In this document: piece by piece, positions 3,457-41,844 of the stretch | Numbering within the stretch: position 1 is the stretch's first letter | Layout of the letters: each line of letters begins with the position of its first letter | Assembly (NCBI GenBank): GCA_024400135.1 | Contig: JAKSNE010000001.1 | Span: 1-53,642 of the forward strand | Length of the DNA: 53,642 nt | DNA from: Paludibacteraceae bacterium | GTDB taxonomy: Bacteria; Bacteroidota; Bacteroidia; Bacteroidales; Paludibacteraceae | Direction: 5' to 3' | Translations under genes and position numbers: made by a program | The notes under the pieces: generated by a model | Told to the model about the DNA's origin: nothing | Databases searched by the model: none | Seen by the model: the letters and a program-made list of their open reading frames with translations, nothing else

Positions 3457-4677
3457 TTAATATAAGAACCCTAACAGCCACAACGGCATATAATTGCCGC
3501 GCCCGGTTTCCAAGTCACCCACGGCACAAGGACGGATACTATCACGCTCCGTAACATGTTCTTTCACGTCGAAATAGTACTTGCCATCCACCACAAACAT
3601 CGCATTGCGCTCCGTTGCATTCACTCTATGATCCGAGTGCAACGCCTGATAGAAATACGTCTCATACTCCTCCATGGGCGACAAGTCGCGCTCCAAAGCC
3701 ATGTTGGCAATGTTCGTGTTTTGCATATATACCTTCGTAGGCTTCATCGGATATTGCTTACCATCCATATACAAGAGATTCAGCAGACGCGCATCCTTGA
3801 GGCATTTGATATAGTTCATCGTTGTGGCACGCGACATCGAGATATCCTCCGAGATATTACTGATATTCAACGCACATGGTGCCTCGCGAAGCATAATATG
3901 CAGTAGTTTGCGCAACTTCGGAAGACACGATACATCAATCTGCTTAATAATCAATATATCCACCTCCAACATCATATTCATCATCTTTAGTAGCTCGGTC
4001 TTATAATCTTTATTCTCACGATAAGAGGGGAAATAGCCGCTGCGTAAGTAGTTCTTGAAATAGTACAAGGGGTGTACAAACTCACAAATCTCACGCGAAA
4101 TCGAACCGTGCGAGCGCACGATCTCATCCAGCGTATAAGGTTGCAAGTGCAAGCCCGTCTGCAAGTTCAGATACTCACGGAACGAGAATCCACGCAGGTT
4201 GTACATCTTAACGATGCCATTCAAATCCCTATTATCCTCTATTAACCGCATCACCGGAGAGGCGGAGAAGACTATGTGCAAGTCATGGAAGCGATCGTGA
4301 CAACGACGCAACTCCTTCGACCAGTTCGGATATTTGAACGTCTGGTCAAGGAACAAATACTTACCTCCCGATTTAACAAAGACGGACGCAAACTCCACGA
4401 GCGAGTGCTCCGTAAAATAGAAGTTATTGAGGTTCACATATAGACACGGACGACCGGTGGCTTTCTTCTTACGAACACCGGCAGCCATCTCGTCACTGAC
4501 CTGAGACTCTACTTCACGAGCACGAACTAATAACAAATCCGTCTTCCCTACTCCACGTCCTCCTTTGATGGCAATCAGACGATCTTCCCAATCAATCTCG
4601 TCCATTAATAAACGGCGAATCGGCATCTCTGCATGTGCCACCAAATAATCGTGCATTTGATAAAAAGCTTCTAACAT
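3457..4677 (-). CDS. AAA+ ATPase (multi-copy Bacteroidales ATP-binding protein, AAA/DUF4143-like)
   Basis: 406-aa ORF with P-loop GGRGVGKTDLLL near the N-terminus. It has its own consensus promoter 27 nt upstream. Confidence 0.7.
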   Translation of the reverse strand: MLEAFYQMHDYLVAHAEMPIRRLLMDEIDWEDRLIAIKGGRGVGKTDLLLVRAREVESQVSDEMAAGVRKKKATGRPCLYVNLNNFYFTEHSLVEFASVFVKSGGKYLFLDQTFKYPNWSKELRRCHDRFHDLHIVFSASPVMRLIEDNRDLNGIVKMYNLRGFSFREYLNLQTGLHLQPYTLDEIVRSHGSISREICEFVHPLYYFKNYLRSGYFPSYRENKDYKTELLKMMNMMLEVDILIIKQIDVSCLPKLRKLLHIMLREAPCALNISNISEDISMSRATTMNYIKCLKDARLLNLLYMDGKQYPMKPTKVYMQNTNIANMALERDLSPMEEYETYFYQALHSDHRVNATERNAMFVVDGKYYFDVKEHVTERDSIRPCAVGDLETGRGNYMPLWLLGFLY

Positions 4678-5103: not shown

Positions 5104-5730
5104 TTATTTTTTCTTTTGCGCTAAGGCAGCCAATAATTGTGCATTCGGTCCGGTGAGTTTACCCGAAGCCAATCCCTTCTGCTTGGCGTAGGTTGTCCAG
5201 TCTTTCGCGCCGTGCTCCATCTTAAGGGGCAATCCCAACTGTAAGAAATGGCAATAAGCAATACCCAACGCGTCCGTGGCATCTAATTTTTTAGGCATTT
5301 TCTCATCGGGAATCTTCAAGAACCGTTGCAGCATATCCGCCACCTGCGATTTATCCGAATGCCCATTGCCCGTAATCGCCATTTTGACCTTCATCGGAGA
5401 GTATTCGTTAATGGGTATATCGCGACTCAAAGCCGCCGCTATCGCCACCCCTTGCGCATGGACAATCTTAATCATTGTTTGCGGGTTTTTATCCACAAAC
5501 TGCGTCTCAATCGCCAACTCCGTAGGGTGCTGATTATCAATTAGTTGTTGCAAGAAAAAGAACTCCTTTTGCAGACGCGCATACTGCCCGTCTAACTTGT
5601 GTACATCCTCCACACCAAAGTCCACCAACTGCACCTTAGAGCCCTCGGTATCAAGTATCGCCCAACCCATAAAAAGAGTACCCGGGTCGATACCTAAAAT
5701 ACGATGATGAGAAACCAGTTTATCTATCAT
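5104..5730 (-). CDS. ruvC: Crossover junction endodeoxyribonuclease RuvC
   Basis: N-terminus ILGIDPGTLFMGWAILD carries the RNase H-fold catalytic Asp, and the rest shows RuvC-like conservation. It has a longer-than-usual basic C-terminal tail. Confidence 0.85.
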   Translation of the reverse strand: MIDKLVSHHRILGIDPGTLFMGWAILDTEGSKVQLVDFGVEDVHKLDGQYARLQKEFFFLQQLIDNQHPTELAIETQFVDKNPQTMIKIVHAQGVAIAAALSRDIPINEYSPMKVKMAITGNGHSDKSQVADMLQRFLKIPDEKMPKKLDATDALGIAYCHFLQLGLPLKMEHGAKDWTTYAKQKGLASGKLTGPNAQLLAALAQKKK

Positions 5731-35911: not shown

Positions 35912-35920
35912 TCTACACTA
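35892..35920. repeat. Heptamer array (antisense orientation) spanning the MFS stop and the epimerase start
   Basis: ttaaactctaaactttccactctacacta. The minus strand reads TAG-tgt-aga-GTG-gaa-agt-tta-gag-ttt-aaa. Confidence 0.8.
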
Positions 35921-37315
35921 CTTTTTAATTGGGAATCGATATACCAGCCAAGCCATGATCAAGGCTATTCCTGCCGGAATCAGCGAGAACAAGCACCAGA
36001 TCATCGTCTGTACTGCCGATTCGTTCGTGATGGTCACAATCGTTTCGCCCGTCAACATATCTTGAGAGGACACTAAACCTGCCCAACCTAATAGAGCTGC
36101 AATGAGCGAACCCGAGATAGCTCCGCCGAGTTTTTGAGCCATCGTACCCGAGGAGAAGATCAATCCCGTAGAAGAAGTTCCGAAAGTCTCTGTAGCATAG
36201 TCTGCCACATCGGCATACATCGACCACAATAGAGGTGAATAAATACCTATACCCATGGAAGTAAGGATAACCACTAAAATCATAAGCCACATATAAGCCG
36301 AATCCATCGGGATGAAGAAGAACATAACCGAAGTCACAACGCAAATAAACGCGGCAATGATAAAGGCTTTACGTTTGCTGCCCACCCATTTCGTGAAGGC
36401 GGGCGAGATACCGCCAAAAATCATACACGTCACCTCACCTATCGCCATAAAGACGGTGAAGTTAATAATGATAGTAGGATCAATGTTCCAATTACCAATG
36501 TGTATTGTTCCTATCCATTCCGATAATCCGGTCAGGAGCACGTCACCACCCAAGCAGTACGTAAACAGATAAGCGGCAACAGCATAACGGAAACCGTTAA
36601 AGAAATTAGTGAATATTCCGGTAGCGGTCAGATAGAGCCAAGGTTTGTTCTTGAACAAATCCACAAACTGCTTAAAGTCATATTTCTCTGCGCGTTTGGG
36701 TTTGATACGCTCCTTGGTCATCAGTCCGCAAAGCATAGTCATCAACGCAGCCAGTCCGCCAAAGACCGCACCGATAACTGCATATTGGTGCGCCTCTGTC
36801 CCGCCAATCCATTTCTGAACGTAGGGGAAGATAAGAAGGGTGATAAAGCCCATCAGATAAGCACCCACCATACGATAAGACGAGAACTGGTTTTTCTCGT
36901 TATCATCATCGGTCATCACACCCAGCAGCGAACCGTAAGGCACATTAACAGCAGTATAAGCCGCCATCATAAGCAGGTAGAACGTATAAGCATAGATGCG
37001 TTTGCCCACGGGACCGAGGTCGGGAGTAAAGAGCAAAAGCGCAAAGATCAATCCGTAAGGGATAGCTCCGAAGATGAGCCACGGACGATACGTACCCCAT
37101 TTGGATTGCGTACGGTCTGCCAGCGAGCCCATCAGCGGGTCAGTCACTACGTCAAACAGACGAGCAATCAACATAAGGATAGCGGCATCCGCAAAACTAA
37201 GTCCGAAAACATTGGTAAAAAACACAGGAAAAGCAATCGACATGATTTTCCACGTGATACCGCCCGCAGCGGCGTCGCCCATTGCATAAGCGAGTTTTTC
37301 TTTAATTGAAGCCAT
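35918..37315 (-). CDS. GPH-family (glycoside-pentoside-hexuronide):cation symporter, MFS superfamily
   Basis: 465 aa with 12 TM segments. N-terminus KLAYAMGDAA... and LADRTQSKWGTYRPW are typical of MelB/GPH transporters. Confidence 0.85.
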   Translation of the reverse strand: MASIKEKLAYAMGDAAAGGITWKIMSIAFPVFFTNVFGLSFADAAILMLIARLFDVVTDPLMGSLADRTQSKWGTYRPWLIFGAIPYGLIFALLLFTPDLGPVGKRIYAYTFYLLMMAAYTAVNVPYGSLLGVMTDDDNEKNQFSSYRMVGAYLMGFITLLIFPYVQKWIGGTEAHQYAVIGAVFGGLAALMTMLCGLMTKERIKPKRAEKYDFKQFVDLFKNKPWLYLTATGIFTNFFNGFRYAVAAYLFTYCLGGDVLLTGLSEWIGTIHIGNWNIDPTIIINFTVFMAIGEVTCMIFGGISPAFTKWVGSKRKAFIIAAFICVVTSVMFFFIPMDSAYMWLMILVVILTSMGIGIYSPLLWSMYADVADYATETFGTSSTGLIFSSGTMAQKLGGAISGSLIAALLGWAGLVSSQDMLTGETIVTITNESAVQTMIWCLFSLIPAGIALIMAWLVYRFPIKK

Positions 37316-37551
37316 ATTATTAGTGATTAGTATTATTGTGTTAATTTTCTTTGGTTGTTTTTATCTCTCACAGATTACACTGATTACACTGATTATTTTT
37401 TATTATTTCCTCCTATTTATTTATTCTCGGATTGTGAGTAAACTCTCATCCATCAAATAAATCAATAGTAGGAGAAGGCTTGCTCCGCTAAACCTTCTGT
37501 GTCTGCTATGCAGCCACAATAAGAGCTTATTAGCGGTTTTATTCCACAGAT

Positions 37552-37592
37552 CCTCTTGTTTCTTGTTTCTTGTTCTTTCTCTTCTGCCTCCG
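37552..37592. repeat. TCTTGTT heptamer array (3 perfect units plus degenerate units)
   Basis: tcttgtttcttgtttcttgttctttctcttctgcc is followed by the GC-rich hairpins ggggc...gcccc and gggg-cgct-cccc. Confidence 0.85.
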
Positions 37593-37647
37593 CTCGTCGG
37601 GGCATTCCGTCGCCCCTTGCCGCGGGGCGCTCCCCTTCGTTGCGAGG

Positions 37648-38022
37648 TTAGTTAATAATTCTAATTACACTTTTTTCATCAAGCGATGTAGCGTTAAAGT
37701 TAATAAGCAGTCCTAACTTCTTGTCTGCTAATCGCAAGTACGATAATAATTGTTTTTTATGTAAATCCGTTAATGTATCAACGGATTTTAGTTCTATAAT
37801 CACTCGATCTTCTACCAATAAATCCATCTTTAGTTCGTTGCCAATCTCGTGACCATTGTATAGTATAGGTATCGCAACCTCTCGTCTCACATTATACCCT
37901 GCATCTAAAAGTTCGTAGTATAGTGCCTTTTGGTACAGGCTCTCTAATAGTCCCGGACCCAAAGTCGCGTGTACCTTAAATGCCGCACCTCGTATCGCGT
38001 ATGTCAACTCATTATCTGTCAT
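37648..38022 (-). CDS. GxxExxY protein (PD-(D/E)XK-like, PDDEXK_3 family)
   Basis: 124 aa. It has the signature GPGLLESLY (GxxExxY) and the nuclease-like core DLLVEDRVIIELK. Confidence 0.85.
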   Translation of the reverse strand: MTDNELTYAIRGAAFKVHATLGPGLLESLYQKALYYELLDAGYNVRREVAIPILYNGHEIGNELKMDLLVEDRVIIELKSVDTLTDLHKKQLLSYLRLADKKLGLLINFNATSLDEKSVIRIIN

Positions 38023-38257
38023 ATTTGTTTCTTTACATCTGTGTAATATATCCCTAATATAATTTATTATTAGTGCCGTTAGGCACGGGATGTGAGTTTA
38101 CGAACATTCCCTTTTTAGTTCTTCTTTTTTGGTAGTGAGAGTTTACTCACAACTAGCGAAAAAAAGAAATAAAAAAATAATAAATTATCAATCTATCTGC
38201 GAAATCTGTGGAATCTGTGAGAGATTCAAATCAAAATTTGTGGTTATTGCTTAGTGA

Positions 38258-39310
38258 CTATTGTAAATCTTTTAGGAACAGTGTCCTTGGGTTATTGTAT
38301 AACTTAATAAAATCTTCTTCGGTTTTGAGACCTTTGGCTGCACCGAAATGCTCTTTATGCCAGTTGCGCCAAGGCAGGAAATAGCACACCTCTTTGCCTT
38401 CGGTCAAGGGCAGGAAGACGCGCGTCCACCAGTCGGCCACGGGTGAGTTCTGGATACCGCACTCACTAATAGTAAAGAGCATATTATGCGCTTGCGCATA
38501 AGCATAAAGGAATTCGATATCCGCCTTAGACTGCGTCACGAAGTCATTCTCCGTGCCCCATTGGTAGGTATCGTAGCCAAGAATATCCACGCGTTCTTTT
38601 TCGGGGAAACGAGACTCTAAATACTCGGTCGTGAAGTTACCATCAAGGTTCGGCGAGCAGCACCAAACGATATTCGTCGGCATACGCTCGTTCATATAGT
38701 CTTGGAACATGTTCCACAAAGCGAGCCATTGTTCGTTGGTGCAGTTCTTCCAGCCCCACCAGAACCACGAACCGTTATACTCGTGCCACGGACGAAGGAT
38801 AAACGGAATAGGTTGACCGTTCTCATCCACTAACGTCTCCAAAAACGTTGCCACATCGTTCATCCACTCTACGAAGAGTTCGTGTTGTTCGCCTCCGGGC
38901 AGGATATTGAGTACGGTCGTAGGATCGCTTACGTCCCAAGCATTGCTGCCGGTACGAGGGTTACGCGGGTGCCACGAGAAGGTGATAATACCGCCGTTCT
39001 TAACATGATTGATTGCTTCCTCGCGCATCCAATCAAAGGGTACGCTATCGAGGTTCTTGTCGTGTTTCTCTTCCAGTCCACCAAGGTCAAAGCCCATCAC
39101 GCCCGGATAGTCTCCCACCAGTTCGTAGGTATCCGAGCGACCTTTCTCCCACTGCCACGTCGTACCGTAGAAGGGGTCGTCTTGGTGACCAAACATGATA
39201 CCTTTTTTACTAAGTTCAGTCATGCGCTCTATCAGCGCCTGTGCCGGAGTAGGTGCTTGACTGCAAGCGGTCAAGACCAATCCTAACAAAATGTAAGTTA
39301 CGTTTTTCAT
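38258..39310 (-). CDS. Glycoside hydrolase family 26 endo-beta-1,4-mannanase, lipoprotein
   Basis: The GH26 signature [14 protein letters not shown] is present. I placed the start at [17 protein letters not shown] (ATG 39310), which forms an ATGA overlap with the GH94 stop. The ORF-track N-terminal extension to 39466 lies inside GH94. Confidence 0.85.
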
Positions 39311-41844
39311 AATATTATTTCTATGGTTTGTTTGCCGGGTTGATAAGCCACTATTGTCGGCTTGTCCGCTTTCTGCTTGTGGTTCGGATTGCGAACGATA
39401 ATCTCGTATTCCGCCTCGCGCCACTTGCGATACACCGTAAAGCCTTCCATATCCGCCGGTAAGCAAGGATCAATGATGAGTTCATTGAACCCGGGTTGGA
39501 TACCTAAGATATATTGCGATACCGTAAGCCAGTTCCAAGCCGCTGTACCCGTGAGCCAAGAGTTCTTGCCTTCGCCCGGTTTGGCAGCATCCTTACCGGC
39601 TACCATCTGACAATAAACGTAGGGCTCAATCTTGTGCAAGTCTTGGTCTTTTATCCATGCAGGAGCAATCTTCGTATAGTGTTCCCAAGCGTCGTTACCA
39701 CGCCCCGCTTTGGCTTCGCCAATGATTACCCACGGATTATTGTGACAGAAGATACCGGCATTCTCTTTGTAGCCTGCCGGATAGGAAGAGATCTCGCCCA
39801 TCTCCACGTGATAGGTTGTGAAAGCAGGATGGTTGAGCACCATGCCGTGAGGGGTATCGAGATAACGTTTGCAACTGTCGAGGGCTTTATCTACAAGTCC
39901 GTCCTCTTTGCCTATTTCCGCCATTGTGCAGAAGCCTTGCGACTCGATGAAGATCTTGCCTTCCTCGTTCTCGTTGGAGCCAATCTTATTGCCGAAGAAA
40001 TCGTAAGCGCGTAAGTACCACTCGCCGTCCCAGCCGTACTGCTTAACGGCTTCAATCATCTTATCTATCTCCTTCTGCGCTCTTACTGCTTCCACTCTCA
40101 ACTTCTCAACTTGTCCTTTGTCCTTTGTCCTTGCTCTTTGTTCTAATAACGAAACATAGTCTCTCCCGCAGAACACGAACAGACCGGCAATCATCAACGA
40201 TTGGGCCTTACTGCCTTCGGTTTTGTTCTCGGTGGTTTGGAAGCTCTCATTCGGGTCCCAACTGAAGCAGTTGAGATTCAGACAGTCGTTCCAGTCGGCA
40301 CGACCGATCAAGGGTAGATGTTGCGGTCCGAGGTTATTGACTACGTGGTCAAAACTGATACGTAGGTGTTCGAGTAGGGTCACTTCCGTTCCGGGTTGGT
40401 TATCGAAAGGCACCATCTCGTCCAAGATCGAGTAGTCGCCCGTCTCTTTGATATAAGCCACCGTACCAAAGATCAGCCACATCGGGTCGTCATTGAATCC
40501 GCCTCCAATATCGTTGTTTCCGCGTTTGGAGAGCGGTTGGTATTGGTGGTAGCAGCCGCCGTCGGAGAACTGTGTAGAAGCAATATCAATGATTCGTTCG
40601 CGGGCACGCTCGGGTATCTGGTGTACAAATCCGACGAGGTCTTGGTTACTATCGCGGAAGCCCATACCACGACCGATACCACTCTCAAAGAACGAGGCGG
40701 AACGGCTGAAGCAGAACGTGATCATACATTGGTATTGGTTCCAGATGTTCACCATACGGTTGAGGCGTTCGTCCTTACTCTCGACCGTAAACGTACTGAG
40801 CAATCCGTCCCAAAGCGTGCGGAGCTCAGCAAAAGCCTTATCCACCGCTTCCACGGTAGCGAAACGCTCAATAAGCTCGTGAGCGCGCGCCTTATTAACT
40901 AAGGTCACGTCGCTATCTTGAGAACTAATCAGTTCGCCTTTGCGTTTACGCTCGATATCGGCAGCACAGAACTTGTTATCTTGCTCGTTCTCTACATATC
41001 CGAGCAGGAAGATAAGGTCTTGGCTCTCGCCGGGTTGAAGAGTCAGTTCCACGTAGTGAGACGCAATCGGACTCCAACCATGAGCCACGGACATAGACGG
41101 CTTGCCGTTCATCACGCATTGCGGATTGCTAAAGTCGTTGTATAAACCGATAAACGACTCGCGGTCGGTATCGAACCCCTCCGCCTTGCGGTTGGCAAGC
41201 GCATAGAAAGCGTAGTGATTCCGCCTCTCCTTATATTCGGTCTTATGGTATATACTAGTGAACCCTACTCCTCTACCCTCTACTCCCCTACTCCCATTTT
41301 CAACTTCAATCTCCCCCGTGGACCAGTTGCGTTGGAAGTTCTCCATATCCGTCGAGGCATTCCAAAGGCACCATTCGGCAAAGCTAAAGATCTTCAGATT
41401 CTTGACTTGCGAATCGTGATTGGTGAGGGTCAGTTTATGCACTTCTGCCCACGTATGCAAGGGTACAAAAGTGAGCAAGGAAGCCTCTACCCCATTCTTC
41501 GTTCCCGTGATGCGGGTATAGTTCAAGCCGTGGCGGCACTCATAACTATCGAGCGGGGTCTTACATGGTTTCCATCCGGGATTCCAAACCATGTCGCCAT
41601 CCTTGATATAGAAATATCGACCGCCGGCATCCATCGGCACGCCGTTATAACGATAGCGGGTGATACGGCGGAACTTAGCGTCCTTACAGAAGGTGTAACC
41701 ACCGGCTGTATTGGATATCAGTCCGAAGAAATCTTCGTTACCAAGGTAGTTTATCCACGGGAAAGGGGTTGCAGGATTAGTTATCACATACTCCCTGTTC
41801 TTATCATCAAAAAAACCATATTCTTTCATATCAAAAACTTTCAA
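39307..41844 (-). CDS. Glycoside hydrolase family 94 phosphorylase (cellobiose phosphorylase-like)
   Basis: N-terminus [62 protein letters not shown] closely resembles known cellobiose phosphorylases. 845 aa. Confidence 0.9.
40091..40146. repeat. Composite heptamer array (ACTCTCA units plus TTGTCCT x3) inside GH94
   Basis: tccactctcaacttctcaacttgtcctttgtcctttgtccttgctctttgttc encodes [18 protein letters not shown]. Confidence 0.85.
41263..41295. repeat. CCTCTAC-type heptamer array inside GH94
   Basis: ccctactcctctaccctctactcccctactccc encodes [11 protein letters not shown]. Confidence 0.8.

Follow-up and report, generated by a model that had tools for sequence, protein, structure and literature searches.

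The DNA stretch analysed here, hereafter the window, comprises 53,642 nucleotides (nt) from a Paludibacteraceae bacterium (GenBank assembly GCA_024400135.1, contig JAKSNE010000001.1). Within it, a glycoside hydrolase family 26 (GH26) gene (38258-39466, minus strand; PF02156, E 1.6e-36) is followed downstream by an MFS_2 sugar symporter gene (35918-37315, minus strand; PF13347, E 8.5e-73). The long spacer between the two holds a short open reading frame (ORF) on the same strand, which encodes a GxxExxY protein of the PD-(D/E)XK nuclease type and is enclosed by nested inverted repeats. The spacer is an insertion that is missing from related strains, and its repeats occur in many dispersed copies. 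On balance we lean towards regarding it as one member of a selfish family of hairpin repeats that carries a nuclease gene.

Architecture of the spacer

Two perfect inverted pairs were located: the outer, of 14 nt, is formed by ATCTCTCACAGATT (37363-37376) and its exact reverse complement (38212-38225), the inner, of 17 nt, by TTGTGAGTAAACTCTCA (37432-37448) and its complement (38136-38152). Within the 53.6-kb window neither word is found outside its own two places; chance would provide 0.53 matches to the 14-nt word (≤2 mismatches) and 0.17 to the 17-nt word (≤3 mismatches). The pairs are nested and collinear, and the AT-rich DNA between them is imperfectly complementary (36 nt at 81% and 29 nt at 83%). 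Three tandem 9-mers, CACAGATTA, CACTGATTA and CACTGATTA, occupy 37369-37395, and the inverse 9-mers CGCAGATAG, CACAGATTT and CACAGATTC are found at 38193-38219; the arrays are capped by ATCTCT and AGAGAT, and the terminus in the window can be written as CTCTC plus three copies of CACAGATTN. An inner inverted pair, …ATTCCACAGAT at 37541-37551 and ATCTGTGTAAT… at 38037-38047, lies close around the ORF; in it ttccacagat (37542-37551) pairs with atctgtgtaat (38037-38047).

From the sequence, the repeats, read depth and the points where other copies diverge, two outer arms were delimited. The symporter-proximal arm (37358-37451) consists of an ATCTCTC end, three 9-mers, an AT-rich segment and the 17-mer; the GH26-proximal arm (38136-38230) consists of the 17-mer, an AT-rich segment, three inverse 9-mers and a GAGAGAT end at 38225. 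The inner arms were defined by repeat finding and by joints in ORF-less copies. They are located at 37535-37551, where ORF-less copies join to 38036-38038, and at 38037-38053, 14 nt upstream of the ORF start on the gene strand. A GC-rich and then purine-rich segment (37552-37647, minus strand), multi-copy and conserved in the related loci L001 and L002, extends from the ORF stop to the first inner arm. The copy in the window is therefore described as composite: an inner CACAGAT/ATCTGTG mini-hairpin with the ORF and the GC-rich module is nested in an outer hairpin with arms of ~100 nt, and the latter is also present in many ORF-less copies of the same Paludibacteraceae group.

The original prediction, made from the letters of the window, had named both perfect inverted pairs, the imperfect AT-rich complementarity between them, reiterated CACAGAT-type motifs and a GxxExxY ORF inside the block. 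Direct reading and repeat finding located the pairs as claimed, the complementarity and the motifs were likewise present, and the identity of the ORF was confirmed by profile searches.

The GxxExxY protein

The ORF (37648-38022, minus strand) encodes 124 amino acids and matches PF13366 (PDDEXK_3, E 6e-41) and TIGR04256 (GxxExxY, E 3e-42); with scores of 143.6 and 140 bits, where the cut-offs are 35 and 22 respectively, it falls within the family. Four residues assigned to the catalytic site, E27, D67 and E77-x-K79, are invariant in 40 diverse homologues, as is the G24-x-x-E27-x-x-Y30 motif. An AlphaFold2 model (mean predicted local distance difference test score, pLDDT, 94.5) has a confident PD-(D/E)XK fold. 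In a Foldseek search of the PDB no match had E ≤ 0.001, and neither a Holliday-junction resolvase nor I-Ssp6803I stood out; next after the best overlap, at E ~0.01, came a tRNA-intron endonuclease, a lambda-exonuclease-like enzyme and Bax1. A sequence search of the PDB with the protein gave no match. The PADLOC and PHROGs libraries yielded marginal matches to the Cas4-like core only, and filing the ORF as a defence gene on that basis was dropped.

The ratio of nonsynonymous to synonymous divergence (dN/dS) between ORF copies is 0.01-0.08. Judged from these sequences, the ORF is under strong purifying selection, with its catalytic residues intact. The GxxExxY/PDDEXK_3 family is very large (at least 7,996 homologue matches), its name is in use in routine annotation of genomes, and PDDEXK_3 was listed as 'Unknown' in a 2012 survey of the superfamily (PMC3424549). 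Our literature search found no paper on the GxxExxY family, on the repeats described here or on their association.

An empty site in related strains

Contigs from public sequencing runs were aligned to positions 36800-38800. In contigs of runs X2, X9 and X18, and of the RNA run X14, position 37317 is joined directly to 38259; the contig from X18, a run marked 'DNA?', is 2,533 nt long and has a depth of 17.7. The flanks of the empty-site contigs differ from the window by 4-9%, and the contigs are therefore assigned to a sister lineage. Read on the gene strand, the empty allele is GATTTACAATAATATGGCT: the …LQ codons and TAA of GH26 are followed by a single base and then by the ATG of the symporter, so that 1 nt separates the GH26 stop from the symporter start. 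Since the empty allele joins 37317 to 38259, the whole 941-nt spacer between the GH26 and symporter genes (37318-38258) is extra DNA.

An insertion at this operon junction had been proposed in the original prediction together with a search for an empty site in relatives, and the contigs of related strains provide that site. The dimensions have to be revised: an 863-bp block had been taken as the inserted unit, its removal leaving a ~79-nt spacer, whereas the natural empty allele lacks all 941 nt.

The 4-nt direct repeat TATT is present at both borders of the insertion (37318-37321 and 38259-38262) and fits both sides of the joint. It is a possible target-site duplication, a weak case with n = 1: TATT was seen at one clean empty-site joint, and no consistent duplication was found beside the termini of 16 other copies. 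In the same metagenomes, the sequence of further copies departs from that of the window at 37358 and 38226 (38225/38226), going outward. The conserved multi-copy unit ends at the repeat termini, where the original prediction had placed its ends. The outermost DNA of the insertion, 37318-37362 (45 nt) and 38226-38258 (33 nt), contains CACTAAK-, CAATAAC- and CACAAAT-like words in direct orientation on both sides, and similar runs, AATCACTAAGCAATAA, were noticed in the loops of copies L040 and L089.

Dispersed copies of the repeat

An exact-pattern scan of one genome per species with CTCTCACAGATTN{1,2}CACWGATT, which returned 8-kb stretches from sources that are mostly metagenome-assembled genomes (MAGs), found at least 114 stretches matching the terminal pattern. 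The figures on taxa, gene content and setting that follow apply to the matches listed. They come from Paludibacteraceae (many contigs per MAG), other Bacteroidales, Muribaculaceae, Prevotella, Alistipes, Chitinophagaceae, Saprospirales, Chryseobacterium, cultured Pararhodonellum, Ignavibacteria and Cloacimonadota; single MAGs labelled Chloroflexota, Actinomycetota and Eubacterium are also included and may be mis-binned. A GxxExxY ORF stands beside the motif in 10 of 118 sources, leaving ~90% of the copies ORF-less. With regard to setting, 76 occurrences of the motif fall between co-directional genes, 23 between divergent and 20 between convergent ones, and 9 within an ORF proxy. In line with the original prediction, the window copy belongs to a multi-copy family whose inverted termini are conserved; specificity of the repeat for GxxExxY genes or for operon spacers was not supported, most copies being free of the ORF and some lying in convergent and divergent intergenic regions.

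The ORF-less copies are hairpins of 100-570 nt. Near-perfect hairpins of 100-130 nt made of 9-mers were found at L006, L020, L072, L092, L097 and L102, and composites of 450-570 nt with the internal modules of the window copy at L004, L051, L070, L077, L089, L093 and L105. Inside the wider-spaced motif pairs of L066, L087 and L095 nothing related was found. When ORFs within 1.2 kb of the motif were clustered over the 118 sources, no transposase or other recurrent protein was obtained besides GxxExxY. The hairpins were considered as intrinsic terminators, and this was rejected because a trailing U-run is not consistently present.

Read depth agrees with a many-copy repeat around a low-copy gene. 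The arms (37336-37469 and 38073-38273) and the GC-rich piece (37604-37670) are covered at 6-20x the depth of flanking genes in four metagenomes, the bins over 37537-37670 at 5-10x, and the ORF body at ~1x. Joints of 37551 to 38035/38038 and of 37554 to 38036, with 10-21 unrelated letters between, were recovered from other copies. Such joints indicate ORF-less copies elsewhere in which a short loop replaces the ORF and the GC-rich piece. This GC-rich/purine-rich piece (…GGGGAGCGCCCCGCGGCAAGGGGCGACGGAATGCCCC…) also recurs, with GGCGGAGAGG-type tandem variants, in the ORF-less copies L070 and L105, and looks like a separate repeat module.

Two further arrangements were noted among the dispersed copies. 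At L013 (~4490-4560) and L007 (~560-640) a TCTCGCAGAAAACGCAGAA or TCTCCCGCAGATTACGCAGATT array lies directly beside a CTCTCACAGATT array in one genome, which hints that elements with different dialects are nested. Runs of three to five complete CACAGAT-type hairpins in tandem are present at L030 (~2240-2440), L069 (2067-2358) and L095 (2004-2883), in Chitinophagaceae, Saprospirales and a MAG labelled Actinomycetota, a label that may be a binning error.

Close relatives of the window copy

Proteins 80-92% identical to that of the window are encoded in other Paludibacteraceae MAGs, in different and unrelated gene contexts and co-oriented with their neighbours: between pgi and an ABC-2 gene (L001), upstream of an M23 peptidase gene (L002) and between susD and a GH16 operon (L003). 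Both termini of the window copy, with its modules, are present in L002 and L003, and the 5' terminus only in L001. L001 has three copies of the terminal word CTCTCACAGATTG (5516-5575), ~24 nt apart, ahead of its ORF-bearing element; no 3' arm is recognisable in this copy.

One orthologous site was found in three states: with the ORF in L091, as a partial ORF-less copy with the same right arm in L033, and without any element in L007. In a comparison of the window with L002, identity is 88-91% in the non-coding arms, against a difference of 41% at synonymous sites of the ORF, which implies that the arms are either under constraint or homogenised. As to single-copy, vertical inheritance, the ORF is present at ~1x in the metagenomes, yet occupies different loci in sister MAGs.

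Core arrays accompany GxxExxY genes across the family

A metagenome scan supplied 80 further GxxExxY loci (45-57% identity), 70 of them with enough flanking DNA. A perfect inverted repeat of at least 11 nt across the 250-nt flanks was present at 57% of these 70 loci, compared with 0/112 other genes of the same loci and 2% of shuffled flanks. With a core 7-mer pattern of C[ACG]C[ACGT][AG]A[AGT], at least three copies of one core were found within 250 nt at 72 of 89 loci (81%), against 2.7% of 261 control windows. This is the census that the original prediction had called for, and GxxExxY genes do generally lie between such inverted repeats.

The arrays follow a common plan: a TTCTC-like end, three or four core 7-mers 8-10 nt apart running up to the start codon, the ORF, and inverse arrays right after the stop. 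By lineage the core is CACAGAT, CGCAGAG, CGCAAAG, CGCCAAG, CGCAGAT, CACAGAA or CACTAAG. In 45 of 71 cases a protein and its nearest relative (at <85% identity) share the core, whereas 16% would be expected; as far as these comparisons go, motif dialect tracks protein clade. Arrays pointing inward are commonest (26 loci), the opposite polarity being found in 7, and at several loci, L162 and L186 among them, a complete hairpin stands on each side of the gene. In an isolate of Bacteroides finegoldii the gene fills the spacer from radA to the next gene, between TTCAC-CACAGAGGA-CGCAGAGGA-CACGGAGGA and its inverse, and a Bernardetia isolate has CACAGAGAT-type arrays on the same plan. An exception was noticed at L199 (2300-2960), from Prevotella nigrescens, where a distant homologue (37% identity, 141 amino acids) is accompanied by direct repeats (GGATTTGGAAAGATTT…GCCGACTG…).

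The GxxExxY ORF has the orientation of both its neighbours at 25 loci and is opposite to both at 5. This bias fits an element that lives inside operons.

RNA folding and transcription

In the predicted fold of the gene-strand RNA of the spacer, ends of ~105 nt pair and close the whole spacer (minimum free energy -249.9 kcal/mol; z = -8.4 from 20 shuffles). The arms had been predicted to form a long stem around the ORF, and the computed structure agrees with this. No credible Rfam family was found in the region or in 17 related loci.

In the metatranscriptome run for the window the ORF has a contig depth similar to that of the neighbouring genes, where DNA carry-over is possible. The homologue at L162, from a cultured organism, is transcribed: a contig from pure-culture RNA spans the ORF, with the upstream hairpin at one end and the downstream one at the other, at a depth of 272 compared with 508 for the upstream gene, and nothing was recovered beyond the second hairpin. 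Because contigs break at repeats, its ends are not RNA ends. We note that at L162 position 3450 a 12.6-kb contig of run X41 ends inside the forward array of the downstream hairpin and continues into Nextera adaptor sequence; the fragment may really have ended at the array, or the assembly may have produced an artefact. The RNA stem likely matters and would enclose the ORF in read-through transcripts.

A candidate mobile hairpin family with its own nuclease

By a modest preference, we consider the block to be one copy of a selfish, mobile or formerly mobile, hairpin-repeat family that carries a PD-(D/E)XK nuclease gene. By analogy with known repeat-enzyme pairs, the GxxExxY nuclease may recognise the arrays and spread them, or itself among them. 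Nearly as plausible to us, and more tentative, is the wider proposal that GxxExxY proteins are dedicated nucleases of a class resembling miniature inverted-repeat transposable elements (MITEs) and REPINs (hairpins formed by paired repetitive extragenic palindromic, REP, sequences), distinct from HUH enzymes, distributed across phyla, each with its own 7-mer dialect, and either moving hairpins or homing their own gene. The combination of a conserved core, variable spacers and tolerated mismatches between arms fits an array recognised by a protein better than a mere stem. The interpretation originally offered for this locus is partly supported: it stands with respect to insertion, membership in a multi-copy family and flanking repeats in the protein family generally, and is not supported with respect to the 863-nt size and to a restriction to GxxExxY genes and operon spacers.

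In such a scheme the basic unit would be a pair of inverted arrays of a 7-nt core, repeated 8-10 nt apart, with an outer TCTC-like end. Most copies would be bare hairpins, and a minority would hold the nuclease gene in the loop between the arms. The tandem core motifs, both in the arms around its own gene and in copies lacking the ORF, would be where the nuclease binds and cuts. Cutting could mobilise the units, as insertion sequences (IS) do with MITEs or REP-associated tyrosine transposases (RAYTs) with REPINs; alternatively, the ORF could be copied into ORF-less hairpins by break repair, in the style of a homing endonuclease. In read-through operon RNA the arms would pair and enclose the ORF, and this enclosure would probably keep translation of the nuclease low and let the element sit between cistrons.

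Several results weigh against such a family of mobile units. The borders of the insertion lie 33-45 nt outside the conserved termini, and the putative 4-nt duplication was seen once. A second empty site, at L070, where the entire spacer is missing from related strains, has no clean joint, 14 unrelated letters being present there. ORF copies in different genomes are old (synonymous divergence, dS, from 0.25 to saturated), and no recent jump was therefore caught. With 124 amino acids the GxxExxY protein is far below known transposases in size, and its structural neighbours are generic PD-(D/E)XK proteins only, the best overlap being Cas4 SSO0001 (TM-score 0.58-0.60). About one fifth of GxxExxY genes have no arrays, and some have arrays of opposite polarity or direct repeats. 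Finally, the correlation between protein and motif could reflect joint descent and host base composition, not recognition.

Part of the evidence could also be accommodated by a function exerted in RNA: the long stem formed by the arms would be cut by RNase III, which would free the ORF RNA and separate the GH26 and symporter messages from each other or make them more stable, and the sequence of the arrays would matter only as stem material. The strong closing stem, the predominance of ORFs co-oriented with both neighbours, a 3' arm that often ends 13-47 nt before the next start codon and is followed by an A-rich leader, and the RNA contigs of the cultured relative, which cover the ORF and stop at the downstream hairpin, are all in line with this. 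A stem, however, needs complementarity and not a conserved 7-mer, and the core is kept across phyla while the spacers vary; differences between the arms are uncompensated (CACAGAT opposite CACTGAT), hairpins are also found between convergent and between divergent genes, the element is a polymorphism of inserted DNA, and no Rfam family matches. As the full explanation we consider an RNA-level function unlikely, although it is not exclusive of a mobile hairpin family and is compatible with it.

A serious alternative, to which we give a low probability, is domestication. The arrays would then be REP-type elements beneficial to the host, acting as terminators, mRNA stabilisers or sites for nucleoid proteins, and GxxExxY would be their vertically inherited caretaker, a role modelled on the proposal for single-copy RAYTs. 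An approximately single-copy ORF with many-copy arms, strong purifying selection on old ORF copies, two Chitinophagaceae genomes that keep the element at an orthologous site, and a gene between two complete hairpins at L162 and L186, like RAYTs between REPINs, would be expected in this case. Against it, the ORF occupies different loci in sister genomes, presence varies between close strains, and the same dialect is encountered in several phyla, which suggests horizontal spread. We disfavour, as very improbable, an incidental association in which an unrelated MITE-like repeat captured, or landed around, a GxxExxY gene with another role such as defence or toxin. That most repeat copies lack the gene, and that the protein weakly resembles Cas4-type nucleases in defence and phage libraries, would be in keeping with it; the association at 81% of 89 diverse loci, with different dialects and in several phyla, compared with 2.7% of controls, arrays that abut start and stop codons, and the fact that no other protein family recurs beside the repeat, are not.

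Comparison with known systems

Among the closest parallels to the mobile hairpin family that we favour are REPIN-RAYT systems, in which inverted pairs are likewise dispersed between genes as hairpins, a low-copy gene is flanked by inverted repeats or by two complete hairpins, and repeat dialects match enzyme lineages. RAYTs, however, are HUH/Y1 enzymes similar to the IS200/IS605 TnpA, whereas the only recurrent protein linked to the present repeats is the 124-amino-acid PD-(D/E)XK nuclease of PF13366; a REP is a single palindrome of 20-40 nt with a GTAG/CGTC tag, whereas here we find a tandem array of a 7-mer core; and many copies of the GxxExxY element hold the gene inside the hairpin loop.

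With IS elements and MITEs the family shares terminal inverted repeats, many ORF-less copies per ORF-bearing copy, intergenic insertion, co-transcription with neighbours, presence/absence polymorphism and possibly a short target duplication. Transcribed MITEs such as the Correia elements of Neisseria and the enterobacterial repetitive intergenic consensus (ERIC) sequences, which are processed in mRNA, were considered for comparison. The differences are that no DDE, serine, tyrosine or HUH transposase was found among the ORFs within 1.2 kb in the 118 sources, that the termini are multi-site arrays, and that in the window the inserted DNA extends past the conserved termini.

Homing endonucleases, including the PD-(D/E)XK enzyme I-Ssp6803I, resemble the system in that a small nuclease gene occupies a place where ORF-less alleles have a short loop. 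Presence and absence of the ORF at a conserved site were observed both as joints of 37551 to 38036 and in L091 compared with L033; a split target would make an ORF-bearing copy immune, and the arms could serve as repair template. The GxxExxY gene is not in an intron or intein, and its product has no detectable sequence similarity or close structural similarity to I-Ssp6803I. Intervening sequences of rRNA, some of which carry an ORF (PF05635), are also insertions bounded by a long stem with a small ORF in a transcript that tolerates cutting. Here the insertion is in an mRNA spacer between protein-coding genes and not in 23S rRNA, there is no Rfam match, the ORF belongs to another family and the arms are specific repeated motifs. 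To Cas4/RecB-type nucleases the protein is linked by its best structural match, SSO0001, by its sole weak profile matches and by the shared D…ExK metal site; it differs in having no Fe-S cysteines, half the size and no CRISPR context. Integron attC sites were rejected: the arms are on both sides of the gene and have a CRCARAK core, whereas attC is single and 3' to the gene, with R''/L''-L'/R' and a GTTRRRY core. No cassette array or integrase was found in the region of the window.

Both the protein family and MITE/REPIN-like repeats are known; their link, the architecture of the arrays and the dialects appear to be undescribed. If the wider proposal of dedicated nucleases is correct, many thousands of 'hypothetical' genes of one family would gain a function, and the existence of a large class of intergenic repeats would be accounted for. 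Beside REPIN-RAYT there would be a second repeat-enzyme system, with a different enzyme fold. The insertion of such elements would also account for long, odd spacers inside tightly coupled operons, such as the present one, and bears on operon expression in gut Bacteroidota and on breaks in metagenome assemblies. The association of gene and array, together with the ORF-less hairpins, makes recognition of the arrays by the nuclease directly testable.

Neighbouring genes

Beyond the GH26 and symporter genes, a GH94-type phosphorylase gene and an epimerase gene lie on the same strand. An operon of GH94-type phosphorylase, GH26, MFS_2 symporter and 2-epimerase looks like a beta-mannan/mannobiose pathway. 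As listed, the GH26 ORF (38258-39466) takes a TTG as its start and thereby runs into the end of the GH94-type gene (39307-41844); the real start is probably internal, at a lipoprotein-like signal, which would make the GH94-GH26 junction a short one.

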